From assembly GCA_963804645.1 (NCBI GenBank), contig CAWDRG010000020.1:1-64000 (forward strand): a stretch of DNA of 64,000 nucleotides, given 5' to 3'. Under the pieces are notes generated by a model. It was not told where the DNA came from and made no database searches. It was given only the letters and a program-made list of their open reading frames with translations. Positions 17,277-35,726 of the stretch are shown in pieces; within the stretch, counting starts at the first letter, position 1, and the number at the start of each line of letters is the position of its first letter. A program made the position numbers and the translations under genes. This stretch comes from an uncultured Bacillota bacterium (GTDB lineage Bacteria; Sysuimicrobiota; Sysuimicrobiia; Sysuimicrobiales; Segetimicrobiaceae).

Positions 17277-17474
17277 ATGGATCGGTTGCGGAAGGCAGTG
17301 TACGGCACGCTCGCAGTGTTGACGGCAGGCGCGGTCATGGCGATGGCGTCGGGGATCGCGATGGCGCAGGATACTGGCTCGTATGGCAACGGCAGCACCA
17401 CCGCGACCGGCGGTGCGGATCTGAATCCCGCGTACCAGGTGGGGAACGCGCAGGGTGACGGCAGCGGCAAGTAG
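17277..17474 (+). CDS. Small secreted Gly-rich peptide (65 aa)
   Basis: GGAGGAGG RBS; signal peptide ending AMA|Q; 35-aa polar mature part. Confidence 0.7.
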   Translation: MDRLRKAVYGTLAVLTAGAVMAMASGIAMAQDTGSYGNGSTTATGGADLNPAYQVGNAQGDGSGK

Positions 17475-17758
17475 TGTGGTCGGACGGCCGCGGTGCCGAC
17501 CGGGCCGGCCGCGAGTCTGAACGGAGTGCAGCCGGGCGAGGCTGGTCACCTCGCCCGGCCGTGCTGTGCCCGCGCATATCGCGCGTCGCCCCCCGCGCCT
17601 GCGGCGCGCCGATCCACGCCGGCTTGGGTCGCCGGCACGCACGCCACGCGGCAATGCAGGACCTCCGCGGCACAACACGGAACCGGCTACGTGCCCCGCC
17701 GTCGCGACGACGCGATGATGACGCCGCGTCGGGGACGCCGAGAGCGGAGGTCGTCTCC

Positions 17759-18943
17759 GTGCGGATCACACGGCTCGACGCGATTCCCGTGGCAGTTCCC
17801 GATCCGCCCCTGCGCAACTCGTGGGGGGTCCACGCGCCCTCGTTCCTGCGCACGATCCTGCGCCTGCACACGGATGACGGCCTCGTGGGGCTGAGCGAGA
17901 CGTACGGTCCGGACGTCGTGACGCCGACGCAGATCGAGCGGGTGCGTCAGGTGGTGGTCGGAGGGCGTCCCGAGGACACGCAGCGGTTTGCGTACCGCCT
18001 TCGATGGCCCGAGATCGCCGGCGCGATCGAGGTCGCCTGTCTCGATCTGCTCGGCCGCGCCGCGGGACGGCGCGTGTGCGACCTGCTCGGGGGTCCGGTC
18101 CGGGACCGCGTCTCCTACGGCGCGTATCTGTTTTTCAAGTTCGCCGCGGAGGATGCGTGGGGCGAGGTGGGATCGCCGGACCAGATGGTGGCCCTGGCCG
18201 AACGCTTCGTCGAGCGGTTCGGGTTTACCACGCTGAAGGTCAAGGGCGGGGTGCTGCCGCCCTTGCAGGAAGTGGAGACCATGGTCCTGCTCCGGCGCCG
18301 GTTCGGCGTGGGATACCCGCTGCGCCTTGACCCGAATGCCGTGTGGTCGGTGGAGACGAGCCTGCGGGTCGCGTACGAGCTCGAGCGGGCCGGCGTATGG
18401 CTGGAGTTCTTGGAGGACCCCACGAGCGGCATCGCGGGCATGGCGCGGGTGCGGGAGCGCATCACCCTGCCGCTGGCGACCAACATGTGCGTGACGAACT
18501 GGGACGAGATCGCGCCGGCCGTCGAAGCTGGGGCCGTCGACGTAGTGCTGGCGGACCACCACGGCTGGGGCGGACTGCGGGCGTGCCAAGAACTTGGACG
18601 ACTCTGCGCGACGTTTCGCTGGGGCGTCGGCATGCACTCCAACAGCCATCTCGGCATTTCCATGGCGGCGATGACGCATCTCGCGAGCGTCGTGCCCACG
18701 CTGATCGCGGCGTCGGACACGCATTACCCATGGCTCGCTGACGACGTGATCACGCGCCCGTTCGTCTTCAAAGACGGCACCCTTGCGCTTCCCGAGGGAC
18801 CGGGACTGGGCGTGGACCTCGATGAGGAGCGCGTGGCGCAATACCACGAGGCATACGAGCGGGGCGCCGTACGCCAGCGTGACGATACCGCCGAGCTCGT
18901 GAAGCGCGACCCCGGGTGGCTGCCAATCAAACCCCGCTGGTAA
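17759..18943 (+). CDS. Enolase superfamily, glucarate-dehydratase-like
   Basis: KVKGGV, RLDPN, LEDP, LATNMCV, MHSNSHLG, DTHYPW; GTG start with GGAGG. Confidence 0.9.
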   Translation: MRITRLDAIPVAVPDPPLRNSWGVHAPSFLRTILRLHTDDGLVGLSETYGPDVVTPTQIERVRQVVVGGRPEDTQRFAYRLRWPEIAGAIEVACLDLLGRAAGRRVCDLLGGPVRDRVSYGAYLFFKFAAEDAWGEVGSPDQMVALAERFVERFGFTTLKVKGGVLPPLQEVETMVLLRRRFGVGYPLRLDPNAVWSVETSLRVAYELERAGVWLEFLEDPTSGIAGMARVRERITLPLATNMCVTNWDEIAPAVEAGAVDVVLADHHGWGGLRACQELGRLCATFRWGVGMHSNSHLGISMAAMTHLASVVPTLIAASDTHYPWLADDVITRPFVFKDGTLALPEGPGLGVDLDEERVAQYHEAYERGAVRQRDDTAELVKRDPGWLPIKPRW

Positions 18944-19115
18944 ATTGGCCGACGCGCCAGTGAGACTCCCGCAGCACCGGGCGGGGCTCGTGCATCCGGT
19001 GCGGTGGGTGCCGCATCGATATCATGATCGGATCGAATGGACGAAGGGTCGCGCACGGTCCACTACTAACGCGCAGGCGCTGACGGAACGAGAGCCTGCC
19101 GAAGGAGGAGTTGCG

Positions 19116-21044
19116 ATGGGTATGCGGATCGACCGCCGTGGGTTTCTCCGGCTGTCCGCCCTCGCTACTGCCGGAGCCGTCTCGACGATCTACTTCCCGA
19201 CCAACGGGGCGAAGCGCGCCCTGGCCGCGACCGCGTCGAAGTACCAGGAAGCGCCGATGCTGGCGGACCTGGTGAAGCAGGGGAAGCTCCCGCCGGTGGA
19301 CCAGCGGCTACCCGCCTCAGAGGATGTCCTGGTCGTCCGCCCCATCGATGAGGTGGGAGAGTACGGCGGCGTGTGGCGGCTCGCGTGGAAGGGGCCCGCA
19401 GATTTTCACGCCTACGGACGCGAGAACTACGAGGCGGTGGTGCGCTGGCCGCGCAATCCGAAGGATCCGATCCAGCCGGGGCTCGCGAAGCGGTGGCAGT
19501 TCAGCGACGGCGGGAAGACGATTACGCTCTATTTCCGCAAGGGGCTGAAATGGTCGGACGGGCAGCCCTGGACCGTCGACGACATCATCTTCTGGTGGGA
19601 AGACATCGAAACCAACAAGGAGCTGAACGCGGCGCCCCACACGGAGTGGGTCGTGAACGACCAGCCGATGACGCTGGAGAAGATCGACGACCTCACCATC
19701 AGCCTCAAGTTTGCCGCGCCGAACGGGATGGTGCTGTCGATGCTGGCGTTCCACGGAAACCAGTGGCCGCTCAACTTCGAGCGATTCGGCTTCTTCGTCC
19801 CGTCGCACTATCTCAAGCAGTACCATCCGAAGTACAACAAGACCATCACTGACTACAAGCTGTTCAACCAGATGGCCGACGACCTCAACCCGGACCGGCC
19901 GTCGATGGCCCCGTGGCCGGTGTCGACGTACCGCCCGGGCGACGCCAAGCTCATCGCGTCGCGCAATCCCTACTACTGGAAGGTCGACCCCAAGGGGCAG
20001 CAGCTGCCCTACATCGATCGCCTCGAGCTGACGCTGGTCGAGAACAACGAGGCGGTGGCGAGCCAGGCGCTGACCTGTCAGATCGACATGCAGTACCGCG
20101 GCATGGATCTGAATAAGTTTCCGCTGTTCGTGTCGAAGGGCCAGGACTGCGCGTACCGCGTCGTCAAATGGCTCTCGGCGTCCGGCAGCCAGCTCCTCTT
20201 CTGGCCGAACCAGAGTTACGACGGGGACGATGTGCTTCGGAAGATCTTCCAGGACCGAAACTTCCGCATCGGGCTCTCGCTGGCGATCGACCGCAACAAG
20301 ATCAATACCGTCGCGTACCTGGGGCAGGGACAGATCAACGCCCCCACGGTGGTGCCGGACTCGGCGTACTACCCAAACAACGTGGCGAAGCTGTACCAAA
20401 ACTACGACGTGCGCATGGCCGGGCAGTCGCTCGACAAGGCGGGGCTGAAGATGGGGCCGGACGGGAAGGTTCGCCTCAGGCCCGACGGAAAGCCGCTCGA
20501 GGTCGTGATCGAGACCCAGCTGCAGGGGGCGGACCTGGACGCGATCGAGCTGGTTGCGGCCGATTGGACCGCGCTGGGCGTCAAGACCGACATCAAGACG
20601 ATGTCGCGAGACCTGTACTGGCCGCGGGCGACCGGCAATCAGGTCCAGATCGCGACGTGGAACGGCGACCGCGGGCTCGAGCCGTTCGTGGATCCGATCT
20701 ACGTGTTCCCGTTCGACGAGCGGTCGTGGATGGCTCCGGCGTTCGGGGTGTACTACAAGACCAACGGGGCGAAGGGTGAGAAGCCGGTCGGGTCGCTGGC
20801 CCAGGCCCAAGCGCTGTACGACCAGTTCCGGGGCACGGTCGACCGGGGCAAGCAGGTCGCGATCGGCAAACAGCTAATTCAGATGGCGGTTGAGGAAGTG
20901 ACGACGATCTGCACCGTCGGGCTGGTTCCCGTGCCGCTGATCGTCGACAATCGGATGAAGAACGTGCCGGACCACTACGTGCAGGACTGGATCATCTTTT
21001 CGCCGGGCAATCTGGATCCATGCCACTTCTTCTATAAGGCATAG
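19116..21044 (+). CDS. ABC substrate-binding protein (family 5), Tat signal
   Basis: DRRGFL Tat motif; EAPMLADLV..GKLPPVDQRLP, GLKWSDG, RNPYYWKVD..GQQLPYID. Confidence 0.93.
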   Translation: MGMRIDRRGFLRLSALATAGAVSTIYFPTNGAKRALAATASKYQEAPMLADLVKQGKLPPVDQRLPASEDVLVVRPIDEVGEYGGVWRLAWKGPADFHAYGRENYEAVVRWPRNPKDPIQPGLAKRWQFSDGGKTITLYFRKGLKWSDGQPWTVDDIIFWWEDIETNKELNAAPHTEWVVNDQPMTLEKIDDLTISLKFAAPNGMVLSMLAFHGNQWPLNFERFGFFVPSHYLKQYHPKYNKTITDYKLFNQMADDLNPDRPSMAPWPVSTYRPGDAKLIASRNPYYWKVDPKGQQLPYIDRLELTLVENNEAVASQALTCQIDMQYRGMDLNKFPLFVSKGQDCAYRVVKWLSASGSQLLFWPNQSYDGDDVLRKIFQDRNFRIGLSLAIDRNKINTVAYLGQGQINAPTVVPDSAYYPNNVAKLYQNYDVRMAGQSLDKAGLKMGPDGKVRLRPDGKPLEVVIETQLQGADLDAIELVAADWTALGVKTDIKTMSRDLYWPRATGNQVQIATWNGDRGLEPFVDPIYVFPFDERSWMAPAFGVYYKTNGAKGEKPVGSLAQAQALYDQFRGTVDRGKQVAIGKQLIQMAVEEVTTICTVGLVPVPLIVDNRMKNVPDHYVQDWIIFSPGNLDPCHFFYKA

Positions 21045-21131
21045 CCGAGAGATCGGCGGAGCGGTAGGCGGGCGGCGCCGGGACGCGCCGCCTGCGCATC
21101 GCGCCCCGCGCTGGAGCAGGGAGGAACTGGG

Positions 21132-22115
21132 ATGACCAGGTATGTCGTCCGGCGTCTCCTGGCCATGATCCCGACACTCTTTCTGGTGTCGATTGCCTGC
21201 TTCATTATCATTCAGTTGCCGCCTGGAGATTTCGTGACCTCGCTGGCGGCGCAGACGGCGGGCTCAGGATCGAGCGCAGATCAGGCGACGCTGGACAACC
21301 TGCGCCATCAGTACGGCCTCGATCAGCCCAAATACATCCGCTACATCAAGTGGGTCTCCGGATTCGCGCACGGCGACTTCGGCTACTCGTTCGAATGGAA
21401 GCGGCCGGTCGCCCAGTTGATCGGGGACCGGCTCGGGCTCACGCTGCTGCTCTCCACGTTGTCCCTCGCGCTGACGTGGCTGATTGCGGTGCCCGTCGGC
21501 GTCTACTCGGCGACGCACCGGTACTCGGGCCTGGACCACGCGCTGACGGCCTTCGCGTTCCTCGGGCTGTCCATCCCCGATTTCCTGCTGGGATTGATGT
21601 ACCTGGCGATCGGCATCTTCGTCTTCCAAATGTCGGCCACCGGCCTCGTGTCGCCGCGGTTCGCGGACGCGCCCTGGTCGTTCGCCAAGCTCGCCGATGT
21701 GGCGAACCATCTCCTGTGGCCGTCGATCATCCTCGGCCTGGGCGGCATGACGCAGCTGATTCGCATTCTCCGCGGCAGCATGCTTGAGGTGACCAACCAG
21801 CAGTTCGTCACCACCGCCCGCGCCAAAGGCCTGGACGAGCGGGTGGTGATTCACAAACACGCGCTGAAGGTAGCAATCAATCCGCTGGTGAGCGTGATGG
21901 GCCTGCAGTTGCCGCAGTTGATCTCGGGCGCCACGATCCTTGGGATCGTGCTGTCGATGCCGACGACCGGCCCCATGTTCGTGCGTGCGCTGATCAGTCA
22001 GGATATGTATCTCGCCGGGACGTTTCTGCTGTTTCTGGCGCTGATGCTGATGATGGGCAATCTGCTGGCCGATGTGGCCCTGGCGTGGATCGATCCCCGG
22101 ATTCGTTACCAATGA
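21132..22115 (+). CDS. ABC permease (DppB/OppB type)
   Basis: YVVRRLL, LPPGDF, FVTTARAKGL, IDPRIR. Confidence 0.93.
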   Translation: MTRYVVRRLLAMIPTLFLVSIACFIIIQLPPGDFVTSLAAQTAGSGSSADQATLDNLRHQYGLDQPKYIRYIKWVSGFAHGDFGYSFEWKRPVAQLIGDRLGLTLLLSTLSLALTWLIAVPVGVYSATHRYSGLDHALTAFAFLGLSIPDFLLGLMYLAIGIFVFQMSATGLVSPRFADAPWSFAKLADVANHLLWPSIILGLGGMTQLIRILRGSMLEVTNQQFVTTARAKGLDERVVIHKHALKVAINPLVSVMGLQLPQLISGATILGIVLSMPTTGPMFVRALISQDMYLAGTFLLFLALMLMMGNLLADVALAWIDPRIRYQ

Positions 22116-23263
22116 GCGTCGTCGGGAAACCCACTGCCTCGACGGTCCCCGCCGGGATGCCGGCGGCGGTCGCGTCGGCGTCCGATGCCGGCCGGGGGGT
22201 CGTTCGCACGCGGGGGCAGCTCATGTGGCGGCGGTTTCTCCGCAACCGCGCCGCCGTCGTCGGCGGCATCGTCGTGCTCGCGTTCTATGCCACCGCGCTG
22301 TTCGCCAACTTCGTGGCTCCCTACGGCCTCGATCAGCGGTTCATCGAGTACCTGTACGCGCCGCCGCAGGCCCTGCACGTCGATGTCCGGACCGGGCTCT
22401 ACGTCTATGGCCTGCAGCGCCACGTGAATCCCGATACGCTCCTGACGACATACACCCTCGACCGCAGCCGGAAGCTGCCGGTGCGCTTCTTCGTGCGTGG
22501 CGAGCCATACGTGCTGGCCGGCGTGCTGCCGTCCGATGTGCACCTGTTCGGGGTCGACGCCGCGGACATGGGCGTGTTTCCGCTCGGCACCGACCGGCAG
22601 GGACGCGACATGCTGTCGCGCATCCTCATCGGCAGCCAGATGTCCTTGACGATTGGCCTGGTGGGCGTGTTCCTCAGCCTGATCATCGGGTCGGTGCTCG
22701 GGGTGTTCTCCGGGTACTACGGCGGCTGGATCGACGAGGTCGTGCAGCGCCTGATCGAGGTCATCCGGTCATTCCCCGCGATCCCGTTGTGGATGGCGCT
22801 CAGCGCCGCGCTGCCGCAGTCGTGGTCCCCCGTCAGCGTGTACTTCGCGATTACGGTGATCTTGTCGGTGATCGGATGGACGTGGCTGGCCCGGCAGCTG
22901 CGGGGGAAGGTCCTGGCCTTGCGCGAGGAAGAATTCGTCACCGCGGCGCGCGTCATGGGAGCGAGCGACGGCCGCATCATTTTTAGGCATCTGCTGCCGC
23001 AGGTGTTCGGACACATCGTCGTCATCGCCACACTCGCGCTGCCGGGCATGATCCTCGCCGAGACGGCCCTCTCGTTTCTGAACCTCGGGCTGCGGCCGCC
23101 GCTGACGAGTTGGGGCGTCCTCCTGCAGGAGGCGCAGAATCTGGAGAGCCTGCGGAACTTTCCCTGGCTGCTGATGCCCGCGGCGTTCATTTCCGCGGCC
23201 GTGCTGGCGTTCAACTTCTTCGGGGACGGCCTCCGAGACGCGGCCGACCCGCGCGCGGCGTAG
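22112..23263 (+). CDS. ABC permease (DppC/OppC type)
   Basis: ATGA overlap; LGTDRQGRD, EEFVTAAR..GAS, GDGLRDAADP. Confidence 0.93.
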   Translation: MSVVGKPTASTVPAGMPAAVASASDAGRGVVRTRGQLMWRRFLRNRAAVVGGIVVLAFYATALFANFVAPYGLDQRFIEYLYAPPQALHVDVRTGLYVYGLQRHVNPDTLLTTYTLDRSRKLPVRFFVRGEPYVLAGVLPSDVHLFGVDAADMGVFPLGTDRQGRDMLSRILIGSQMSLTIGLVGVFLSLIIGSVLGVFSGYYGGWIDEVVQRLIEVIRSFPAIPLWMALSAALPQSWSPVSVYFAITVILSVIGWTWLARQLRGKVLALREEEFVTAARVMGASDGRIIFRHLLPQVFGHIVVIATLALPGMILAETALSFLNLGLRPPLTSWGVLLQEAQNLESLRNFPWLLMPAAFISAAVLAFNFFGDGLRDAADPRAA

Positions 23264-23331
23264 CGCACGACCCGCGGGCGCGGCCCGCGCGGAGACCATT
23301 CCGGGCCGCGCCGGCCCACGGGGGGGAGCGC

Positions 23332-24456
23332 ATGCGCATCAAGGACGTCACGGTCCGGGGGTTCCGCCACCCATCCCACACGGTGCGGGACGCCGAGGGG
23401 CACCGACACCCGGGCCCGGTGCACGAGGTCGTGCAGACGCTGACGACGATCACGACCGACGACGGCGTCGCGGGGCACTGCTTCGGGGGCAGCGAGGCCC
23501 TCTGCCGCGTGGTCGCGCCGATGCTGGCGGGGCAGGATCCGCTCGACCGGGAGCGGCTGTGGCAGACGCTGCGCCGCTACCAGCGCCTCGTCGGGGAGGT
23601 CCTGACCGACCGCAACCTCGCGGTGATCGACCTTGCGCTCTGGGATCTCATCGGCCAGGCCCTCCACCAGCCGGTGTTCAAGCTGCTCGGCGCCTACCGG
23701 GATTCGGTGCCGGCCTACGGCAGCACGATGTGCGGCGACGATCTGCCCGGCGGCTTGAGTTCGCCGGAGGAGTACGCCGACTTTGCGCAGGCGCTCCTCG
23801 CGGTGGGGTATCCGGCGATCAAGCTGCACACGTGGATGCCGCCGCTCGGCCCGGACCCCCGGCGTGATGTCGCCGCATGCCGCGCCGTGCGCGAGCGGGT
23901 CGGCCCGGATGTGCGCCTGATGCTGGACTGCTACCACGACTACAGCCGCACCGACGCGCTCTACATCGGCCGCGCGCTCGAGGAGCTTGGCTTCTACTGG
24001 TTCGAGGAGCCGATGAACGAGCAGAGCATGAGCTCGTACGTCTGGCTCACCCGCGAGCTGCGCATTCCGGTCGTCGGGCCGGAGACGCTGGACGGCAAGA
24101 TGCACGCGCGCGCGGAATGGCTCGTCGCCGGCGCCTCCGACATCAGCCGGTACTCCTCGCTGCTCGGCGGCATTACCCCGGCGATGAAGGCGGTCGCCCT
24201 GTGCGAATCGTTCGGCGTGCCGCTCGAGATGCACGGGGCGAACCCCGGCAACCTGCAGGTGCTCGGCGCGATGGGCATTCCGGGGGAATACTACGAGCGC
24301 GGCCTGCTCCATCCGTTCGTCAACTACGAGGACGCCACCCCGTGGCTGCACGAGCTCTTTGATCCTGTTGATCGCCACGGGAACGTGCGCATCTCCCAGA
24401 AGCCCGGCCTTGGGTTGGACGTGAACTGGGACTACATCGAACGCCAGAAGGTGTGA
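23332..24456 (+). CDS. Mandelate racemase/muconate lactonizing family enzyme
   Basis: DLALWDL, IKLH, LMLDC, WFEEP, GPE, EMHG, PGLG. Confidence 0.9.
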   Translation: MRIKDVTVRGFRHPSHTVRDAEGHRHPGPVHEVVQTLTTITTDDGVAGHCFGGSEALCRVVAPMLAGQDPLDRERLWQTLRRYQRLVGEVLTDRNLAVIDLALWDLIGQALHQPVFKLLGAYRDSVPAYGSTMCGDDLPGGLSSPEEYADFAQALLAVGYPAIKLHTWMPPLGPDPRRDVAACRAVRERVGPDVRLMLDCYHDYSRTDALYIGRALEELGFYWFEEPMNEQSMSSYVWLTRELRIPVVGPETLDGKMHARAEWLVAGASDISRYSSLLGGITPAMKAVALCESFGVPLEMHGANPGNLQVLGAMGIPGEYYERGLLHPFVNYEDATPWLHELFDPVDRHGNVRISQKPGLGLDVNWDYIERQKV

Positions 24457-24513
24457 GGCCGGTCCGGTGCACCGCGATGCGCCAAGGTCCGGGCCGCTGT
24501 CGTCGGACGGAGG

Positions 24514-26325
24514 CTACTTGAACGTTGCGCCGGCCTGCAGCAGCAGATGTTCTGCGATCGGGCCGAGGGCGAGCGCGGGCAAGAAGCTCAGCGTGCCGAC
24601 GAGGATGAGTACCGCGACAAGCCAGAGGACGAACTGCCACGCATCGGTCGGGAGGGTGCCTGGACCGGCGGGCCACTGTTTCTTCCCGACCATTGATCCC
24701 GCGATTGCCAGCGCTGGGATCGCCACCCAGAAGCGTCCGGCCAGCATGACCATGGCGCCGAACACGTTGTAGAACGGTGTGTTGCCGGTCAGCCCCGCGA
24801 ATGCGCTGCCGTTGTTGTTCGACATCGACGTGAAGGCGTAGAGGATCTCGCTGAACCCGTGCGGCCCGGGGTTCGACGGGCCCGCCCGCCCCGCCGCGGT
24901 GAGCACCGCGATTGCCGTTGCGGTGAGGGCGACCGCCGGCATGATGATCACGACCAGGGTTGCCATCTTCATCTCGAACGCTTCGATCTTCTTGCCCAGG
25001 TACTCGGGGCTGCGTCCGATCATGAGCCCAGCCGCGAACGCCGCCACGAGGACGTACACGAGCATTCCGTAGAGCCCCGACCCGACGCCGCCGTAGATGA
25101 CCTCGCCGGTGTGCATCAGGAACAGCGGGACGAACCCTCCGGCCGGCGTGTAGGAATCGTAATCCGAGTTGGCCGAGCCGTTCGACGCTGCGGTGGTGAG
25201 CGCCGTCCACAACGCCGAGGCGGCGATCCCAAACCGCGCCTCCTTCCCCTCCATGTTGCCGCCCGGCTGCGCCGTCGTCGCCCGCTGGTCAACGCCCGCC
25301 GGGGTGAGCAGCGGATTGCCGGCCTGCTCCACGCTGACGGCCCCCACGAGCAGCGGCACGAAGATCACCGTCATCGCGGCGAGCAGCGCCCAGGCCTGTT
25401 TCGTGTTCCCGACCATCCGGCCAAACAGATAGCATGACCCGATCGGGATCAGGGCCATTGCCACCGTCTCGAAGAAGTTGGACAGCGGGGTCGGATTCTC
25501 GAACGGGTGCGCGGCATTCACGTTGAAGAAGGCACCGCCGTTCGTGAGCTGCCTGATCGCGACCTGCGAGGCCACGGGGCCCAGGGCAATCTGCTGCCCG
25601 GTGACTGTGACCGTCTGGGTCTTTGGCCGGCCCTTACTGTCGAGCACCGGTTTCCCGTTCGCGCCGGTCACCGGCCGCGTGTACGAGGTCGCTTCCATCA
25701 GCGTCGCGGTCCGGTACGGCGACAGCGTCTGGACGACGCCCTGGGACACGAGGAACAGGGCGAAGACGGCGGCGAGCGGCAGGAAGATGTACAGCGTGCC
25801 GCGCACGAGATCCACCCAGAAGTTGCCGATGGTCCGGCCCGACGTGCGCGCCACGCCGCGGAACAGCGCGACCATGATCGCCAGCCCGGCCCCGGAGACG
25901 AAGGCTTTCGGCACGAACCCCGCCATCTGCGTCAGGTAGCTCATTGCCGTCTCGCCCGCGAAGTTCTGCCACTCGGTGGCGCTCACGTACGACGCCGCGG
26001 TGTTGAAGGCGAGGATGGGATCGATCGACGCAACGTGCTGCGGGTTGAATGGCAGCGCAGCCTGGAGCCGCAGCATCGCGTACAGCAGCAGCATGCCGGC
26101 GACGGTGAAGCACAAGAGTGCGCCGGCGTACGTCTGCCACTCCATCTCCTGCTCCGGCCGTACGCCGGCGCAGCGGTACAGGAGCCGTTCCACCGGTCGG
26201 AGCAGCGGGTCGAGCCACGTGCGCTCGCCCTGGTAGACCCGCGCCATGTAGGCTCCGACCGGTTTGGCCGCGAGCAGCAGCACGACCATGACGGCGGCAA
26301 TCTGCAGCCAGCCGAGAGTGGTCAC
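24514..26325 (-). CDS. kdpA: KdpA paralog with altered filter motifs
   Basis: Colinear with the kdpA at 27945: [45 protein letters not shown]. Has ATEWQ and LTNGGAFF at filters 1 and 2. Confidence 0.95.
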   Translation of the reverse strand: MTTLGWLQIAAVMVVLLLAAKPVGAYMARVYQGERTWLDPLLRPVERLLYRCAGVRPEQEMEWQTYAGALLCFTVAGMLLLYAMLRLQAALPFNPQHVASIDPILAFNTAASYVSATEWQNFAGETAMSYLTQMAGFVPKAFVSGAGLAIMVALFRGVARTSGRTIGNFWVDLVRGTLYIFLPLAAVFALFLVSQGVVQTLSPYRTATLMEATSYTRPVTGANGKPVLDSKGRPKTQTVTVTGQQIALGPVASQVAIRQLTNGGAFFNVNAAHPFENPTPLSNFFETVAMALIPIGSCYLFGRMVGNTKQAWALLAAMTVIFVPLLVGAVSVEQAGNPLLTPAGVDQRATTAQPGGNMEGKEARFGIAASALWTALTTAASNGSANSDYDSYTPAGGFVPLFLMHTGEVIYGGVGSGLYGMLVYVLVAAFAAGLMIGRSPEYLGKKIEAFEMKMATLVVIIMPAVALTATAIAVLTAAGRAGPSNPGPHGFSEILYAFTSMSNNNGSAFAGLTGNTPFYNVFGAMVMLAGRFWVAIPALAIAGSMVGKKQWPAGPGTLPTDAWQFVLWLVAVLILVGTLSFLPALALGPIAEHLLLQAGATFK

Positions 26326-26403
26326 GCGACCCTGTTCAAACCCGAGGAATGTGCGGGGGACGTGTGAACCGCGTCCTCTGCGAAGTGGACGGAGCGGCTG
26401 CGG

Positions 26404-26556
26404 CTAGCGCCGTCGGGATCGTGGCGAGTACAGTCTTGCGGATGTGCTGGCCGTCCGGAGGATGGGGATGGGGCGGGGCTTCGACCGCCGGTCAAGGATC
26501 CGCAGGCAGGAACCCAAGGATAACAAGACGGCGCCGACAAGCAGTGCGTCCGACAC
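26404..26556 (-). CDS. Small peptide upstream of the kdpA paralog (50 aa), resembling 27768-27860
   Basis: GAGAGGTG RBS, GTG start; MSDALLVGAVLLSLGSCLRILDRR... shares the MxD-hydrophobic-SC-LDR pattern. Confidence 0.45.
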   Translation of the reverse strand: MSDALLVGAVLLSLGSCLRILDRRSKPRPIPILRTASTSARLYSPRSRRR

Positions 26557-26643
26557 GTTCGTCACCTCTCAGCGAAGCGCGGGCGTCAAACTCTGCTCCG
26601 AGTCACCCGCGCGCGGACATCGTGGTCCGCAGGCTTCCGCGCC

Positions 26644-26710
26644 ATCCTACCACGGACCGGCGTGGCGGCGGCGTTAAGATATCGTGTCGGGGCGCTACGA
26701 TGTTGTGACG
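26644..26710 (-). promoter_or_regulatory. Candidate KdpE-dependent promoter of the kdpA paralog
   Basis: CGTCAC-5-CGTAGC-15-CTTAAC-5-CGCCAC-12-TAGGAT, with TGn extended -10. Confidence 0.55.
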
Positions 26711-26737
26711 CCCCCATTGGAGGGGACGCGAAGCGAA

Positions 26738-26803
26738 ATTAATCGAGGTTTAACGGCGGAGGCCTCCACCGTAACGCCGCCGTAGCGCGGGTGGTGGTAT
26801 CGT
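26738..26803 (+). promoter_or_regulatory. Candidate KdpE-dependent promoter of the USP gene
   Basis: ATTAAT-5-TTTAAC-15-CGTAAC-5-CGTAGC-11-TATCGT, with TGn extended -10. Confidence 0.6.
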
Positions 26804-26846
26804 GCATGCGACGGCGCACAGACGCCCCCGAGGGGTGGACACTTGT

Positions 26847-27581
26847 ATGTCACGTCGCATGACGAGCACGCTGGATCGCGTCCGGCCGGATGCAGCCTTT
26901 GACCACCGCCCCGGAGCGCCCCTGGGCAGCGGGGATGCCCCGGAGATCGTGTTCGGCGTGGAGGGCGATTCGAACGACGGGCGCGCCATCCGTGCGCTGC
27001 CGAGCCTGTGCTGGGGCATGGAGCACGCAAGTGTCCGGCTGCGCATCGTCCACGTGGTGACCGTGCCGATGACGTTGCCGCTCGACGCGGAACTCCCCGA
27101 GGCCGACGCAGCGGCGGCGGGCATCCTCGGCCGCGCGAACTTTGCGGCCGCGTCGGTCGGTATCCCGGCGCGGACCGGGACGGTGAGGGCCCGGAGTGTC
27201 GCCGGTGGGCTGATCGAGGCCGCACGGCGATCCTCGGCGAGAGGGATCGTGGTGCCGCTGCACCGCCGCGAGGGTGTCGGGGCGCACGTGATCTTGAGCC
27301 GCACCGCGCGGACGTTGCTCACATCCGCCTCGTGCCCCGTCTATCTCCTGCACCTTCCACACGGCGACCTCGATGGCGGGCCCGTCGATGCGGTTGGGAC
27401 GTCCCGGCGCCGGCACGGGGTCCGCAACTGGCTGGCATCTCTCTGGGAGAAGTTCCTCGTCGCATGCGTGATCGCGGAGACGAGCGCGTTCGAGCTCTGC
27501 GGGACGTGCGTGTCCGCCCGCCCGTATCTTGAGGAGACGATGCGGATCCTTGAACTCGGCCGCATCACCCCGAGGGCCTAG
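26847..27581 (+). CDS. Universal stress protein domain protein with C-terminal extension
   Basis: LRIVHVVTVPMTLPLDA, ARSVAGGLIEAA, LSRTARTLLTSASCPVYL. Confidence 0.75.
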   Translation: MSRRMTSTLDRVRPDAAFDHRPGAPLGSGDAPEIVFGVEGDSNDGRAIRALPSLCWGMEHASVRLRIVHVVTVPMTLPLDAELPEADAAAAGILGRANFAAASVGIPARTGTVRARSVAGGLIEAARRSSARGIVVPLHRREGVGAHVILSRTARTLLTSASCPVYLLHLPHGDLDGGPVDAVGTSRRRHGVRNWLASLWEKFLVACVIAETSAFELCGTCVSARPYLEETMRILELGRITPRA

Positions 27582-27624
27582 CCTCCTGCTCGACACGTGC
27601 GGCCTTCCGAACAGTGCCCCCGAG

Positions 27625-27691
27625 ATTAACAAAACATTAATGCCCTTCGCTCCGGCCGTAATGGCTCTGTAATGCCGTTCGATGATACCGT
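27625..27691 (+). promoter_or_regulatory. Candidate KdpE-dependent promoter of the kdpFABC operon
   Basis: ATTAAC-5-ATTAAT-15-CGTAAT-5-TGTAAT-12-TACCGT, with TGn extended -10. Confidence 0.65.
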
Positions 27692-27767
27692 GGCGGAGTA
27701 ATTGACGCCGCGGTGCGGGTTGTGCGCGCGGCGGGCGGGGCACGGGGACAGGGGAGGGTGGTCATCG

Positions 27768-27860
27768 GTGGCGGACGTCGAGCTCATTGTGCTTACGTTG
27801 GTGTTCTTTTTCTCGTGCGTGCTGATGGTCGAGGGCCTCGACCGGCTGATGGGACGGTGA
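27768..27860 (+). CDS. 30-aa membrane peptide preceding kdpF
   Basis: GGGGAGG RBS; MADVELIVLTLVFFFSCVLMVEGLDRLMGR; below the ORF-track size cutoff. Confidence 0.7.
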   Translation: MADVELIVLTLVFFFSCVLMVEGLDRLMGR

Positions 27861-27864
27861 CGAC

Positions 27865-27948
27865 ATGGTCGTGATCGCAGGCGTGCTCTCGCTCGCGCTG
27901 CTGGGATATTTGATCTGCGCACTGTTGAAGCCAGAGTGGTTTGTATGA
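27865..27948 (+). CDS. kdpF: K+-transporting ATPase subunit F
   Basis: [31 protein letters not shown] overlap with kdpA. Confidence 0.9.
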   Translation: MVVIAGVLSLALLGYLICALLKPEWFV

Positions 27949-29762
27949 CGACCAACGGGATCGTCCGCATCGTCCTGCTTCTCGTCGTCACCTTTCTGCT
28001 CGTCAAGCCCGTCGGCACCTACATGGCGAAGGTCTACGAAGGGGAACGGACCTTCCTGGACCGGTTCCTGAAGCCGCTCGAACGGTGGCTGTACCGGATC
28101 TGCGCCATCGATGCGCAGGCCGACATGCCGTGGCAGACATACACGATCGCGCTGCTCGTCTTTACGATCGTCGGCATGCTGCTCTTGTACGCGCTGCAGC
28201 GGCTGCAGGGCGTGCTGCCGTTCAACCCCCAGGCGATGGGCCCGGTCGATCCGAGCCTTGCGTTCAACACCGCCACGTCGTTCGCGACGAACACGAACTG
28301 GCAGAACTACGGCGGAGAGACTACGCTCAGCTACTTCAGCCAGATGGCGGGGCTGACAGTGAAGAACTTCACCTCGGCCGCCGTCGGCATGGCGGTCCTG
28401 GTGGCCCTGATCCGCGGCCTGACGCGCCGCTCGGTCAAGTCGATCGGCAACTTCTGGGTCGATACGGTGCGCGGGGTCCTGTACGTACTCATGCCGCTTT
28501 CGATCGTCCTCGCGCTGCTGCTGGCGTGGCAGGGGCTCCCGGCGACGCTGTCGGCGTACACGACGGCGACCCTCATGGAGCCGACCTCGTACCAGCAGCC
28601 GGTCACCGATGCGAACGGGAAGCCGGTACTCGACGCCAAGGGTCAGCCGGAGACCAAGACGGTCAAGGTGACCGAGCAGCAGATCGCCATCGGTCCCGTG
28701 GCGTCGCAAATTGCGATCAAGGAGCTCGGCACGAACGGTGGCGGATTTTTCAATACCAACTCAGCGCATCCGTTCGAGAACCCAACGCCGCTCTCGAACT
28801 TCCTCGAAATGCTTGCGATCTTGCTTATCCCAATGGCACTCGTCTACACGTACGGCCGGATGGTGAAGGACACCCGCCAGGGCTGGGCGTTGCTCGCGGC
28901 GATGACGATCTGCTTCCTTCCGGCCATCGGGGTCGCCGTGGGGTTCGAGCAGGCCGGCAACCCGCTGTTCCATTCGCTCGGCGTCGATCAGGTCGCGAGC
29001 GCGGTGCAGCCTGGCGGGAACATGGAAGGCAAGGAGGTCCGGTTCGGCCCCGTCGACTCGGCACTCTGGGCCGTGTCGACGACCTCGACCTCGAACGGCT
29101 CGGTGAACTCGATGCACGACTCCTACACCCCGATCGCCGGCATGGTGCCGATGATCATGATGCACCTCGGTGAGATCATCTACGGCGGCGTGGGCACCGG
29201 AATGTACGACATGGTGGCGCTCGTCATTGTCGCCGCGTTCGTCGCGGGATTGATGGTGGGCCGCACGCCGGAGTACCTCGGCAAGAAGATCGAATCGTTC
29301 GAGATGAAGATGGCCACGATCGTCGTGCTGGTGATGCCGGCGGTTGTGCTGGTCGGGACCGCGCTCGGGGTCGCGACTGCGGCCGGCAGGGCCGGGGTGT
29401 CGAACCCGGGCCCGCACGGGTTCAGCGAGATCCTCTACGCGTTTACGTCCATGGGCAACAACAACGGCAGCGCGTTCGCGGGCCTGAACGGCAACACCCC
29501 GTTTTACAACGACGTCGGGGCGGCCGTGATGTGGCTCGGACGGTTCTGGGAGATTGTTCCGGTGCTCGCGATCGCCGGATCCCTGGCCGCCAAGAAGCTC
29601 GTGCCGCCGGGCGCGGGGACGCTGCCCACGCACACGCCGCTGTTCGTCGCGTGGCTGGTGGCGGTGATTATCGTGCTGGGGGCGTTGAGCTTCCTGCCCG
29701 TGCTGGCGCTTGGGCCGATCGTCGAGCACCTGCTGCTGGTCGCCGGCACCACCTTCAAGTGA
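27945..29762 (+). CDS. kdpA: K+-transporting ATPase subunit A (canonical)
   Basis: All four filter motifs canonical: NTNWQ, GTNGGG, SNGSV, NNGSA. Confidence 0.98.
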
Positions 29763-29775
29763 GGAGACGGAGAGC

Positions 29776-31866
29776 ATGAGCGTAGAGACCACGCACCGCG
29801 CGGCCCCCCAGCAGGCCATGATTTGGCGAGTGGCGATCCGGGACGCGTTCCTGCGGCTGGATCCGCGCCAGCAGTTGCGCAACCCGGTGATGTTCGTCGT
29901 GGAGATCGGCAGCGTGTTCACGACGATCCTGTTCTTCCAGGCGCTCGGGGGGAAGGGCGAGGCGCCCGCGCCGTTTATCGGCAGCGTGGCGATCTGGCTC
30001 TGGTTCACCGTCGTGTTCGCAAACTTTGCGGAGGCGCTGGCCGAGGGACGCGGCAAGGCACAGGCGGAGGCGCTGCGGCGCGCGCGCCGGACCATCTCGG
30101 CGCGGCGGCTCGCGCGGCCGGAACGCACCGCGCCGTCGGAAACCGTTCCGTCTACCGCGCTGCGGAAGGGCGACGTCGTCCTGGTCCAGGTCGGCGAGGC
30201 GATCCCCGCCGACGGCGAGGTGATCGAAGGCGTCGCGTCCGTCGACGAGAGCGCCGTGACCGGCGAGAGCGCCCCGGTGATCCGCGAATCGGGCGGCGAC
30301 CGGAGCGCCGTGACCGGCAGCACCGTGGTGCTGTCCGACTGGCTCCTGATCCGCATCACCGCCAATCCCGGCGAGGGCTTCATCGACCGCATGATCGCGC
30401 TGATCGAGGGCGCGCGGCGGCAGAAGACGCCGAACGAGATCGCGCTGACAATCCTGCTCGTCGGCTTCACGATCCTGTTCCTGCTGGTCTGCGCGACACT
30501 GTACCCGTACTCGGTGTTCAGCGTCAGCGTCGCGGGCCACGGCACGCCGGTGACGATCACGGTGCTGATCGCGCTCCTAGTGTGCCTGATCCCGACGACG
30601 ATCGGCGGCCTCCTGAGCGCGATCGGCATCGCGGGGATGGACCGCATGATCAAGCGCAACGTGATCGCCCTGTCGGGCCGTGCCGTGGAGGCTGCGGGCG
30701 ACGTGGACGTGCTCTTGCTCGACAAGACCGGCACGATCACGCTCGGCAACCGGCAGGCGGTCGAGTTCATCCCGGTGGACGGAGTGGACGCACGGCAACT
30801 CGCGGAAGCGGCGCAGCTCGCGTCCCTGGCCGACGAGACGCCGGAAGGCCGCAGCATCGTGGTGCTCGCAAAGGACCAGTATGCGATGCGGGGCCGCACC
30901 GTCGGCGGCACGGAAGAGGCGCCGCACGGCGCCACGTTCGTGCCGTTCAGCGCCCAGACGCGGATGAGCGGCGTGGATTTCGATGGGACGGTCATCCGCA
31001 AGGGTGCGGCGACGGCGATCATCGAGTTCGTGGAGGGGCGCGGCGGCCGGATTCCCCCAGAGCTCAACGCCACGGTTGATCGGATCTCCAGGACGGGCGG
31101 CACGCCGCTGGTCGTGTCCAGGAACGATACCGTGCTTGGCGTCATCTACTTGAAGGACATCGTGAAGGGCGGCATCAAGGAGCGATTCCTGCAGCTGCGG
31201 AAAATGGGCATTCGCACGGTCATGATCACCGGCGACAATCCGTTGACGGCCGCCGCGATCGCCGCCGAGTCCGGGGTGGACGATTTTCTGGCGCAGGCGA
31301 AGCCCGAGGACAAACTCAAGCTGATCCGCGATTACCAGTCCGGCGGCCGGCTCGTGGCGATGACCGGCGACGGCACCAACGATGCGCCGGCGCTCGCGCA
31401 GGCCGACGTGGCGGTGGCCATGAACACCGGGACGCAGCCGGCGCGGGAAGCCGCGAATATGATCGACCTCGACAGCAACCCGACGAAGCTGATCGAGGTC
31501 GTCGAGATCGGCAAGCAGCTGCTGATGACGCGGGGCGCGCTGACGACGTTCAGCATCGCGAACGACGTCGCCAAGTACTTCGCGATCATCCCGGCGGCCT
31601 TTGCGTCCACGTACCCCGTGCTGACCGCGCTCAACTTCATGCGCCTCAGCACCCCGGACAACGCGATTTCGGCCGCCGTGATCTTCAATGCGCTGATCAT
31701 CATTGCGCTCATTCCGCTGTCGCTGCGGGGCGTCAAGTACCGCCCGGCCAGCGCCGGGGAGATCCTGCGCGACAACCTGCTGCTCTACGGCGTCGGCGGC
31801 GTCATCGCGCCGTTCATCGGGATCAAGTTGATCGACGTGATTCTCGTCGCGCTGGGGCTCCATTAG
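29776..31866 (+). CDS. kdpB: K+-transporting ATPase subunit B
   Basis: RNPVMF, TGES, DKTGT, TGDN, GDGTND, NDVAKYF. Confidence 0.98.
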
Positions 31867-31946
31867 GATGCCCGCGCGGCCAATGCATCACACGGCGGCC
31901 CGCAGTCGAGCGGTGGGCGCCGACCACCGATAAGGAGCGAGGAATC

Positions 31947-32519
31947 ATGCGCGCACAACTGCTTCCAGCGGTCATGCTGACCCTGATGCTGGCGATCATT
32001 ACGGGGCTGTGCTATCCGCTCGTAATCACCGGGATCGCGCAGGTCCTGTTTCCGCACCAGGCGAACGGCAGCCTGATCGTGGATCATGGCAAGGTCGTGG
32101 GCTCCGAGCTGATCGGCCAGCCGTTCGCGGACCCCGGCCACTTTTGGAGCCGGCCGTCGGCCACGTCGCCGCAGGCCTACAACGCCGCGTCGTCCAGCGG
32201 CTCGAACCTGGGCCCGACGAACCAGGCGCTGATCGACCAGGTGAAGGCGAACGTCGCGGCGCTCCGCCAGGCGGATCCGGGGAACACCGCGCCGGTGCCG
32301 GTGGACCTCGTCACGAACTCCGCGAGCGGGCTCGATCCCGACATCAGCGTCGCGGCGGCGCTGTACCAGGTGCCGCGGGTCGCGCGGGTGCGCAAGCTGC
32401 CGGTCGAGACCGTCCGCACCCTCGTGGCGCAGTACACGGAGGGCCGCCAGCTGGGCGTGCTCGGGGAGCCGCGGGTGAACGTGCTCGAATTGAACCGGGC
32501 GCTCGACCAGGTGAAGTGA
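31947..32519 (+). CDS. kdpC: K+-transporting ATPase subunit C
   Basis: [34 protein letters not shown]. Confidence 0.97.
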
Positions 32520-32556
32520 GCGCCGCGGGCGCCGCACGGATGTACGGCCGCGTCGC

Positions 32557-33261
32557 GTGGGCCACGCCGTAGCAGGAGCCGGGCCGCGCATTCTCGTCGT
32601 CGACGACGAGGAGCCGGCGCGCCGGCTGCTGTGCGTGCAGTTTGCCGCCCGGGGCTACCGCGTCGTCGAAGCCGCGACCGGGCAGGCGGGGTTGTCGACC
32701 GCCGCGACCCTGCACCCCGATCTGGTCATCGTGGACCTCGAGCTTCCGGATCTCGACGGCCTCGAGGTCATCCGGCGGCTCCGGGAGTGGTCGAACACCC
32801 CGATCGTCGCCTTGTCCGTCCGCGATCTAGAGGCGCAGAAGGTCGCCGCGCTGGACGCCGGGGCGGACGACTACGTCACTAAGCCGTTCAGCACCGGCGA
32901 GCTGCTGGCGCGCATTCGGGTCGCGCTGCGCCACGTCCCCCGCGGCGCGGCCGAGCCCCGGATCGTGATCGGCGCCCTCACCGTCGACGTGGCCCGACGA
33001 AGGGTCACCATGGGGACGCGGGAAGTGGCGCTCACCCCCGTCGAGTACTCGCTGTTGAAAGCGTTGGCGCGTTCGCCGGACTCGGTGCACATGCACCGGC
33101 ACCTCCTCCGTGACGTGTGGGGCCCTGCCTACGAGCGGGATCTCAACCTCCTCCGCGTCAGCGTCAATAAGCTCCGCCGCAAAATCGAGTCGAACCCGGC
33201 GCGGCCGCAGTACATTGTCACCGAAGCGGGCGTCGGCTACCGGCTGCGATCTCCGCAGTGA
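32557..33261 (+). CDS. kdpE: KdpE-like OmpR family response regulator
   Basis: ILVVDDE, DLELPDLDG, LDAGADDYVTKPF, VWGP, LRRKIE, GVGYRL; follows kdpC. Confidence 0.9.
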   Translation: MGHAVAGAGPRILVVDDEEPARRLLCVQFAARGYRVVEAATGQAGLSTAATLHPDLVIVDLELPDLDGLEVIRRLREWSNTPIVALSVRDLEAQKVAALDAGADDYVTKPFSTGELLARIRVALRHVPRGAAEPRIVIGALTVDVARRRVTMGTREVALTPVEYSLLKALARSPDSVHMHRHLLRDVWGPAYERDLNLLRVSVNKLRRKIESNPARPQYIVTEAGVGYRLRSPQ

Positions 33262-33337
33262 CGGGGCCGTTCCCCAAGCCGGGCACGTCACGGCCTGGCC
33301 CAGCGGGTCCGGTCTGCGCCTGGGAGCGAGGATGTAC

Positions 33338-33366
33338 TTACCAGCCGGCTGCCCTGGTGTTAGAAT
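33338..33366 (+). promoter_or_regulatory. Candidate sigma70 promoter
   Basis: TTACCA-17-TAGAAT with TG extension. Confidence 0.45.
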
Positions 33367-33476
33367 GCTACTGAACGAGTGACGCCGCGATTCCCCCATG
33401 TGCCCGAACGCTCGCGCGGCACGGTGTGAGCGACGATGCCGTCAGGACAGGCTGACCATTTCATCAGCGGAGGAGA

Positions 33477-33689
33477 ATGCTCTCGATGCGACGCGACCAG
33501 CGGCAGACCGGCAGCACGCGTACCGCCAAGCCAAGCAAGATGGACTCGGTGCATCCGCCAGCTTCGTCGGGCTTCAAGCCCGGGCCGTTTGCCCGAGACC
33601 GATACCTTCAAGAGATTAAGGCGCCAACCGGCAGGATGCTGCGCAGGTCCATGGGGGCGAATCTCAAGCCCGACGCCCGGAAGGCCTAG
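33477..33689 (+). CDS. Small basic hypothetical protein (70 aa)
   Basis: GGAGGAG just upstream; lies downstream of the candidate promoter. Confidence 0.4.
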   Translation: MLSMRRDQRQTGSTRTAKPSKMDSVHPPASSGFKPGPFARDRYLQEIKAPTGRMLRRSMGANLKPDARKA

Positions 33690-33913
33690 GCAACCGGCGC
33701 GCCCGGGATCCGAGCGGGCCTGCGCCGGGCCCGCCGGGGGGGCGCAGAGAGCCCGAGGGCGCGCGGCGGAAGCGGACCGTCATGGACGCGAGATGTGGTG
33801 GCCGTGCCGGCCTGACGCGAGAGTGCGTCCGGTCAGCACGGCCTTCTTCGTGAGCACCGGGCGTGTCTGCAGTGCGTCCGGCGAAGCCCCGTCTGGGGCG
33901 GAGAGGAGACGCC

Positions 33914-34300
33914 ATGCTGGATGAAGTGATTGGACGCATCACACGGTTGGAGGACCAGGCCACGGTGAGGAGAGTCTTCGGCGAGCCCATCCGCGAGCAC
34001 GGCCGTACCATTATTCCGGTGGCCAAGGCGGCGTACGGGTTTGGTTTCGGAGGCGGGCGGACTGCGGCGCGAGAGCAGGAAGCAGCACCGACAGGCGAGC
34101 ACGAGACCGGGACCGGCGGGGGCGGCGGTGGTGGCCTGCGAGTCTCTCCCGTGGCGCTCGTGGAGATGACGGAGACCGGCACGAAAGTCCGGCCGATCGT
34201 CGATGTGACCCGCCTGGTGCTGGCTGGGATCGGCTTGATCGCGTGGAACGTCTTTTGGATCACGCTCACCGTCAGGGTAGTTGCGAGGCACCGCCGGTAG
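33914..34300 (+). CDS. GerW/YtfJ family protein
   Basis: VFGEPI, TIIPVA, GFGFGGG, GGGGGGG..VSPVA. Confidence 0.85.
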   Translation: MLDEVIGRITRLEDQATVRRVFGEPIREHGRTIIPVAKAAYGFGFGGGRTAAREQEAAPTGEHETGTGGGGGGGLRVSPVALVEMTETGTKVRPIVDVTRLVLAGIGLIAWNVFWITLTVRVVARHRR

Positions 34301-34325
34301 CGCGGGACCGCTGGGGCGGCGCCGG

Positions 34326-35138: not shown

Positions 35139-35225
35139 GACGACTCCTGTGGGGATGCGCTGGCGGCTGGGACCGGCTGCGGGTCCGCGGCGGCCGCATC
35201 ACGCGGCGCCGCGCCGCGCGCGTCC

Positions 35226-35726
35226 TTACTTGAGACGATCTTGAATCTTCGCGAGCCCGGCGCGGGCGCAGGCTTCATCGAGGTTGCCGCCCGGCGCGCC
35301 GGCGGCGCCGATCGCCCCGATCACTTCATTGCCGATCCGGATGACCACGCCTCCCTGGAACAGCAGCAGATGCGGCAGCTTTGCGGTCAGCGTGCCGATC
35401 GTCTGGGCCCGGTCGAGCAGCGCGCCGGTGTCGTTCTTGAACGTGACGCTCGTGTAGGCTTTGTCGTGCGCGCTGTCGAGCGTATGAATCCCGGCACCGT
35501 CGCCGCGCAGCAGCGCCTGCGTCACGCCGTCCGTGTCGACGACCACGGCGGTCTCCGCGTAGCCCTGCTGCGCGCAGGCTGCGACCGCGGCCCCGACCGC
35601 CTCGTTGGCCAGCTCGGCGTTCAGCCGGTGCACGGCCGTCTGGGCCGACACCCGCGGCGACGACGCACCTGCGCCGATGAGAACGAGGGCGGCGACGGCC
35701 AGGCACATCGCGGCTCTTGCGTGCAT
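35226..35726 (-). CDS. Exported GlcG/HbpS family heme-binding protein
   Basis: Signal peptide; VVVDTDG, LRGDGA, KAYTS, IGAIGAAGAPGG. Confidence 0.88.
   Translation of the reverse strand: MHARAAMCLAVAALVLIGAGASSPRVSAQTAVHRLNAELANEAVGAAVAACAQQGYAETAVVVDTDGVTQALLRGDGAGIHTLDSAHDKAYTSVTFKNDTGALLDRAQTIGTLTAKLPHLLLFQGGVVIRIGNEVIGAIGAAGAPGGNLDEACARAGLAKIQDRLK

Follow-up and report, generated by a model that had tools for sequence, protein, structure and literature searches.

KdpFABC combines a channel-like filter with a P-type pump, and the KdpA subunit is the seat of its extreme selectivity for K+. To our knowledge, the effects of filter residues on affinity and selectivity are known only from laboratory mutants, nearly all of which are altered at Q116 or G232. 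Here, we describe an extra copy of KdpA, KdpA2, whose gene (kdpA2; 24514–26325, minus strand) lies beside the normal potassium pump genes of a soil bacterium. The stretch of DNA analyzed, hereafter the window, comprises 64 kb (bases 1–64000 of contig C20) of a draft genome (G000) of 5.3 Mb with about 65–70% G+C. We found that kdpA2 was intact and under purifying selection, that its derived filter residues were conserved within a clade of homologous genes while the pore and coupling residues were retained, and that the gene was linked to kdp loci and to a conserved small open reading frame (ORF), X2.

As described in published structures and simulations, N112, T113, T230, S343, C344, N466 and N467 form the main K+ site (S3) with their backbone carbonyls (bioRxiv 10.1101/2025.03.04.641403), and N112, T230, S343 and N466 form the inner S4 site with their side chains; E370 is located in the vestibule, and R400 forms a salt bridge to KdpB (bioRxiv 10.1101/2021.01.09.426067). 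On the basis of these ligands, the four filter loops can be aligned as N112-T113-N114, T230-N231-G232, S343-C344-G345 and N466-N467-G468, and N114 would occupy the register position of G232. The G232D mutant showed a lowered affinity and pumped Rb+ and NH4+ with coupling intact, and Q116E behaved like the wild type; ion selection was governed by the filter, with KdpB described as 'relatively promiscuous' (PMC12629597). No filter mutation is reported to admit Na+ (PMC8385062). The KdpA pore was reported to be sealed towards the cytoplasm, below the intramembrane loop, in all states (PMC6255902), so KdpA would need KdpB for throughput.

Comparison of KdpA2 with canonical KdpA

The kdpA2 gene of G000 starts with GTG and encodes 603 residues in an open frame with no stop or frameshift. 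The Pfam KdpA model PF03814 matched KdpA2 from position 2 to 548 of 548 with 725.3 bits (cut-off 22.6), and NCBIfam TIGR00680 (kdpA equivalog) matched with 675.1 bits, which passed the cut-off of 387.7. A full-length match to PDB chain 6hra_A was obtained with phmmer (E 9e-153), and the adjoining canonical KdpA showed 65% identity (391/605). By profile, kdpA2 is a member of the KdpA family, but it lacks the canonical loop-1 asparagines and the operon context, as it was found without kdpB, kdpC or kdpF of its own. The first-pass annotation, made from the sequence alone, had described a full-length second kdpA without its own kdpB and kdpC, and this was borne out. Its description of the gene as stand-alone held as far as kdpB and kdpC were concerned, but kdpA2 was not wholly alone, as the conserved X2 was located about 80 nt upstream. 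On the 3′ side, kdpA2 faced a convergent gene of the enolase superfamily, and on the 5′ side X2 was followed by a divergent gene encoding a Usp-domain protein. The G+C content at third codon positions (GC3) of kdpA2 was 0.90, compared with 0.91 and 0.90 in the canonical copies, and its composition is native to the genome.

Residues were numbered as in E. coli by manual reading of a HMMER alignment with PDB chain 6hra_A. In loop 1, TNTNWQ of the canonical neighbor was replaced by SATEWQ in KdpA2; the changes in or before this loop were F109Y, T111S, N112A and N114E, and Y118F was found just after it. In loop 2, LGTNGGGFF was changed to L-TNGGAFF, in which G229 was deleted directly before T230 and G234 was replaced by alanine. 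The D1M2 helix after loop 1 was also rebuilt, such that a 14-residue canonical segment became AGFVPKAFVSGA-G, with the substitutions L133F, T134V, V135P, N137A and A141G and the loss of one residue at S143. Loops 3 and 4 of the filter (SNGS and NNGS) were the same as in the canonical protein. All of these motif changes, as well as the kept SNGS and NNGS motifs, had been read correctly in the first-pass annotation.

We found that A112 and E114 were present in 7/7 clade sequences; among 127 canonical KdpA sequences, N112 was present in all and N114 in 126. The G229 deletion was likewise present in every one of the seven clade members. Every member defined by homology, including the deepest (P0008, 72% identity), had A112, E114, the G229 deletion and the PKAFVSGAG helix. 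In contrast, Ala234 was limited to G000 and its 95%-identical relative (2/7), and the other five members contained TNGGG. The earlier proposal of a distinct paralogue with a changed filter, which was to be checked by the conservation of ATEWQ and LTNGGA in homologues, was thus upheld for loop 1 and the G229 deletion, but the glycine-to-alanine change did not extend to the clade. The residues T113, W115, Q116, T230, N231, G232, G233, S343, G345, E370, G374, R400, N465, N467–S469 and R493 were retained in 7/7 members, as were S378 and Y381, and N466 was retained in six of the seven. V347A and H351Y, beside loop 3, were further changes of the clade. Relative to KdpA of E. coli KdpFABC (PDB 5MRW and 6HRA), KdpA2 is similar in its full-length match and in the retention of E370, R400, R493 and, largely, loops 2–4. 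It differs in N112A, N114E, F109Y, T111S, the G229 deletion and the rebuilt D1M2 helix, and in that its gene is accompanied by X2 and is not encoded with kdpF, kdpB and kdpC. The retention of E370, R400, R493 and all remaining invariant pore positions is consistent with a subunit that may still work with KdpB.

To define clade-specific sites, we required fixation in at least six of the seven clade members and a frequency of at most 5% among the 127 canonical KdpA sequences. This definition gave 25 substitution sites, 12 of which fell within residues 113–145, whereas the densest 33-residue stretch in 20,000 random placements held at most nine. The changes in KdpA2 are targeted, and neither diffuse nor due to chance. 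Other rare filter variants were also observed: SNTSWQ with an altered loop 2 in P0072 (63% identical to KdpA2), TNTDWQ in P0130 and P0211, and TTTTWQ with GSNGGG in P0233, from which it appears that the filter diversity of KdpA may exceed the kdpA2 clade. The single-chain structure prediction of KdpA2 (20-row alignment) had a mean predicted local distance difference test (pLDDT) score of 52.5, with filter regions below 50, and was too poor for use. A complex prediction of KdpA2 (20-row alignment), KdpC and X2 (6-row alignment), run without controls and scored for X2, gave 0.00 twice and speaks neither for nor against binding.

Distribution, selection and origin of the kdpA2 clade

Orthologues of kdpA2 were identified in 4/7 genus genomes (G000, G002, G005 and G006) and, in total, in about nine lineages with identities as low as 72%. 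A protein search of 41 related genomes, including G000, revealed identities of 89%, 86% and 81% in G005, G002 and G006, respectively, and all remaining family matches were canonical, with 62–67% identity. In a database of 5.8 billion proteins, the clade comprised six clusters (72–100% identity), one of which was the window's own gene, and the next matches were canonical and at most 68% identical. A word search of the whole database on residues 100–150 gave only 147 candidates; the variant was present in those six clusters only, which ranked first, and the score then dropped from 80 to 55 bits. No extra KdpA copy outside this genus was found by the Pfam search, which covered 23 family genomes and 60 phylum genomes that were at least 90% complete. 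A degenerate DNA pattern of the loop-1 motif additionally identified two loci in species-representative genomes and eight in metagenome contigs; because these loci were retrieved by the motif itself, they are not independent evidence of its conservation and were used to supply context and DNA. A whole-protein search of genome contigs returned 80 loci, all of them distant canonical KdpA (52–62%) matched through the universal GGNMEGKE word, and was left unused.

The ratio of nonsynonymous to synonymous substitutions (dN/dS), calculated with the NG86 method, was 0.076–0.168 in pairs of full-length kdpA2 genes, with dS up to 0.8, and 0.076–0.32 when three partial sequences were included; matched canonical pairs gave 0.05–0.15. 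The derived residues were fixed while adjoining codons varied synonymously; for example, Ala234 was encoded by GCC in one strain and by GCG in the other. The first-pass annotation had named substitutions unique to this genome, with dN/dS near 1, as the mark of early decay. This reading fails, because the substitutions were shared across the clade and dN/dS, at 0.08–0.17, was not near 1.

Two genomic layouts were observed. In layout I, the X2-kdpA2 module was divergent from a (Usp)-X-kdpFABC cluster, in which X is a short peptide encoded before kdpF; this layout was present in the window, L113, L111, L116 and L110/L112, and L109 showed the same beginning but ended within Usp. In layout II, which was of the G006 type (L108, L115 and L117), the module was located on the same strand between a distant kdpABC-response regulator set, whose kdpA was 38–42% identical, and a kdpE-kdpD pair. 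From these two layouts, the module appears to move, yet always within kdp clusters. The distant Kdp set of L108 (7641–12030; G006 contig C33), also found in L027, was itself unusual: its KdpA was 38–43% identical to the others, its KdpC was long (337 aa), and it had its own response regulator and was located immediately 5′ of X2-kdpA2. The distant KdpA had a canonical loop 2, but its loop 1 gave no match to a simple pattern for the W-Q motif.

A quick maximum-likelihood tree built from 59 KdpA sequences recovered the kdpA2 clade as monophyletic (support 100) on a long stem (0.16), with the canonical KdpA of the whole family as its sister group, and a 24-row tree agreed. An origin within the genus was considered and marginally rejected, as grouping the clade with the canonical copies of the genus cost 24 log-likelihood units; the approximately unbiased (AU) test gave p = 0.045, a borderline value, since the constrained group was named after the first tree and long-branch effects are possible. 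The duplication is probably older than the genus. An X-kdpF-kdpA unit may have been duplicated; X2 and kdpA2 would then have been retained and kdpF lost by decay. A remnant of kdpF in the X2-kdpA2 spacer was also considered, as this spacer of about 78 nt is close to the 84 nt of kdpF; however, the frame ending at the kdpA2 start was not hydrophobic, and therefore no kdpF is demonstrable there.

X2, the upstream DNA and the neighboring kdp genes

X2 (26404–26565, minus strand) is a conserved small ORF of 53 aa in the window, with a hydrophobic helix and a basic, proline-rich tail, and it ends about 78 nt before kdpA2. A ribosome-binding site, GAGGTGA, was found just 5′ of an alternative GTG start at 26556 and overlapped the GTG listed at 26565. 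X2 was present upstream of kdpA2 in 9/9 loci covering that DNA, which represented six distinct lineages and both genomic contexts. The size of X2 ranged from 49 to 56 aa, and its N-terminal hydrophobic helix contained 11 invariant positions, with a variable tail. Peptide X (27768–27860, plus strand) is a 30-aa hydrophobic ORF immediately before kdpF, and a frame of this type (about 30 aa) ended 84–88 nt before kdpA in all 14 canonical family loci. Searches of Pfam and NCBIfam gave no family match for X2, and none for peptide X. Peptide X may act as a leader peptide, or it may be a small component of Kdp that has yet to be described. When a profile of 14 X peptides was compared with 83,834 small genome frames, X2 ranked fifth (third after two true X) with an E-value of 7.6 and 8.4 bits, a score that is not significant alone; the resemblance is suggestive of homology between X2 and peptide X.

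The alignment of seven upstream regions revealed a conserved non-coding block of about 40 nt 5′ of X2 (26638–26679, minus strand; TTAACGCCG ... GTGGTAGGAT type), which was also kept in the G006-type context. This block is a candidate promoter or operator of X2-kdpA2. The block (TTAACGCCGCCG ... GTGGTAGGAT) resembled a region at about 26770–26800 on the plus strand before the Usp gene (GTAACGCCGCCG ... GTGGTATCGTG), which suggests a shared promoter type unseen by a sigma-70 consensus scan. That scan, covering 24000–28100, returned no promoter-like sites, and hence none in the X2 upstream block. A terminator scan of the same region gave one terminator-like site, inside a gene, which was fewer than in shuffles, and an Rfam scan of 22000–36000 (E up to 1) found no riboswitch 5′ of either kdpA and only a chance snoRNA match. 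Additionally, a direct-repeat box, WTTAAY-N5-WTTAAY, was found between kdpA2/X2 and the Usp gene (26738–26754, plus strand) and again upstream of X-kdpF in the canonical operon (27625–27641, plus strand). The 64-kb window contained only these two exact sites, where 0.05 would be expected, for a pattern that was derived from the two sites themselves. The Usp-side box was conserved in relatives retaining the Usp gene, and similar boxes were present before kdpF in other family loci; no such box was found close to X2. The boxes are candidate operators of the OmpR/KdpE type.

The canonical operon lies on the strand opposite to kdpA2, about 1.5 kb away. It contains kdpF (27865–27948; PF09604, 30.3 bits; TIGR02115, 33.6 bits), the canonical kdpA (27945–29762) with TNTNWQ, GTNGGG, SNGS and NNGS, kdpB with E1-E2 ATPase and HAD domains (29710–31866 as the ORF is listed; the true start may be later), and kdpC (31947–32519; PF02669, 262.8 bits), all on the plus strand. 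A KdpE-like response regulator gene of the OmpR family (32557–33261, plus strand) follows; it was observed beside kdpC without an adjoining kinase gene. The Usp-domain protein (26802–27581, plus strand; 259 aa; PF00582, 34.6 bits) is encoded between kdpA2 and kdpF. This gene was cut to a C-terminal remnant in L110 (4899–5099) and L116 (1785–1955), where the last approximately 67 codons, with a Cys-x-x-Cys motif, were still conserved just 5′ of the kdpF box; the Usp tail may be a separate functional unit. Genome-wide, three KdpA matches and two KdpC matches were found. A second complete X-kdpF-kdpA-kdpB-kdpC operon was located on contig C17 of G000 (about 149.7–154.4 kb), and a kdpE-kdpD pair on contig C4 (69767–73213), with a kinase frame of 911 aa. 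X2, the species-limited G234A, this second kdp operon and a premature stop in a sister lineage (see below) are features beyond the first-pass annotation. On the other side of kdpA2, at 17474–24456, two enolase-superfamily genes (mandelate racemase/muconate lactonizing enzyme) flank a peptide/nickel-type ABC transporter (a binding protein and two permeases), an arrangement that resembles a common catabolic cluster with no apparent connection to kdp.

Possible function of KdpA2

The filter of KdpA2 was rebuilt while the residues for hand-over to KdpB were kept, which favors an alternative ion-entry subunit that would use the resident KdpB and KdpC; we hold this reading to be about evenly balanced between right and wrong, and its filter would most likely have a lower affinity and relaxed discrimination. 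We infer the assembly with KdpB and KdpC, the role of X2 and the ion moved from the comparisons above. According to this proposal, kdpA2 would represent a functional, selectively maintained subfamily of KdpA, carried in a small mobile module of the upstream region, X2 and kdpA2. KdpA2 would replace canonical KdpA on the resident KdpB and KdpC, and ATP-driven pumping would proceed as usual, through the KdpA vestibule and then the tunnel into KdpB. With N112A, the inner S4 site would be left with three of its four side-chain oxygens; N114E would add a carboxylate at the position equivalent to G232, and without G229 the connection to loop 2 would be shorter. The backing helix of loop 1 has lost polar residues (T134V and N137A) and one further residue and has gained a proline, and these polar losses together with the G229 deletion would be expected to reshape loops 1 and 2. 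The predicted outcome is a pump isoform with a lower K+ affinity and relaxed discrimination, for which NH4+ or Rb+/Cs+-like ions are candidates. Na+, which had also been proposed in the first-pass annotation, runs against the statement in PMC8385062 that it is admitted by no filter mutation. A more specific form of the proposal, in which X2-KdpA2 is an exchangeable cartridge on the same KdpB and KdpC, X2 replaces KdpF as a stabilizing helix, and the pump takes up a cation other than K+ (candidates being NH4+ and the larger alkali ions) or takes up K+ over another range of affinity, is possible but rather doubtful.

Several observations weigh against an alternative entry subunit. The dN/dS of kdpA2 was about 1.3–1.5 times that of the matched canonical copies, and kdpA2 was not detected in three other genomes of the genus, G001 (96% complete), G003 (94%) and G004 (65%), which makes it a dispensable gene. 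A module remnant in G003 was looked for and rejected, as no X2, Usp or kdpA2 match was present within 17 kb around its kdpFABC. In G002, an in-frame TAG replaced Tyr codon 496, ahead of loop 4, and the G002 lineage also had neither the Usp gene nor its box; the same TAG base was present in two metagenome contigs (L110 and L112) that were 100% identical to G002 and may not be independent. In G006, the partner pump is ambiguous, because the nearest kdpB and kdpC are of the distant operon type. Additionally, KdpF stabilizes the E. coli complex, yet kdpF was lost from the kdpA2 module. N112A and N114E are not known among the E. coli mutants.

Some of these observations would also suit a relic, that is, a duplicate nearing loss, or a decoy that does not transport and titrates KdpB and KdpC: the premature TAG in the G002 lineage, the lack of a detected copy in 3/7 genus genomes and in the other family genera searched, the lost kdpF, and the replacement of invariant filter asparagines. 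Nevertheless, dN/dS stayed at 0.08–0.17 over dS up to 0.8, the derived residues were fixed amid synonymous changes, X2 and the upstream block were conserved along with the gene, and the clade reached down to 72% identity. The stop in G002 itself is recent, as the region downstream of it still showed a dN/dS of 0.11. We therefore regard a relic or decoy as very improbable, and the inactive decoy raised in the first-pass annotation is disfavored by the constraint across the whole protein. We give as little credence to an autonomous transporter, in which KdpA2 and X2 would act as a channel or uniporter without an ATPase, in the manner of TrkH or KtrB. KdpA belongs to the same superfamily as those proteins (PMC9898762 and PMC6255902), and kdpA2 stands apart from kdpB and kdpC with an upstream region and a conserved small, predicted membrane partner of its own. 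However, the D3M2 intramembrane-loop region and the sealed-vestibule residues E370, G374, S378 and Y381 were as in canonical KdpA, no gene for a gating partner of the RCK/TrkA type was found nearby in the window, and the gene was found only inside kdp clusters.

An ion co-sensor is somewhat less improbable than these two but still unlikely. In such a role KdpA2, perhaps with X2, would not pump and would report the occupancy of its altered filter to KdpD/KdpE, like transporter-derived sensors. The G006-type layout places X2-kdpA2 directly 5′ of kdpE-kdpD on the same strand, and kdpA2 has no ATPase of its own; a free KdpA, being sealed (PMC6255902), would bind and not conduct ions, and the filter changes would retune its binding affinity. 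On the other hand, the kinase gene lies elsewhere in G000 (kdpD on contig C4) and in the other layout I loci, and E370, G374, R400 and R493, which a pure sensor would not need, were kept in 7/7 members. KdpA and KdpD are also not known to make contact.

The alternative entry subunit can also be compared with known systems. In E. coli laboratory mutants such as G232D and Q116R, filter positions are likewise changed, and G232D places an acidic residue at the filter glycine of one repeat (PMC12629597). In KdpA2, however, it is repeat 1 that carries the acidic residue (N114E), the equivalence to G232 being derived from the register, and this residue is combined with N112A, the deletion and a remodeled backing helix in a natural, conserved state that was not selected in the laboratory. 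The nearest functional analogy may be TrkG and TrkH of E. coli with TrkA, in which paralogous channel subunits share one accessory protein and differ in transport (PMC9898762); TrkA is a cytoplasmic RCK gating ring, whereas KdpA2 would share a P-type ATPase, through which the ion has to travel. Genomes with several complete kdp operons are similar in that G000 has two kdpFABC sets (C20 and C17), but in the case of kdpA2 the duplication is limited to the channel subunit with a leader peptide and does not include the pump. Searches of the full-text literature, which did not extend to subscription-only papers such as the older KdpA mutagenesis work, yielded no paper that describes a stand-alone KdpA paralogue.

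In the kdpA2 clade, loop 1 has been redesigned naturally and under selection at two otherwise essentially invariant asparagines, with what may be compensating changes in the backing helix, and the clade thus offers a ready-made set of substitutions for E. coli KdpA. The unnamed, predicted membrane peptides X, before kdpF, and X2, before kdpA2, suggest undescribed Kdp components in this phylum. If KdpB and KdpC are shared, a P-type ATPase complex would be able to switch its substrate or affinity by the exchange of one subunit, and a swappable cartridge, if true, would be the first natural case of one ATPase engine with alternative selectivity subunits.

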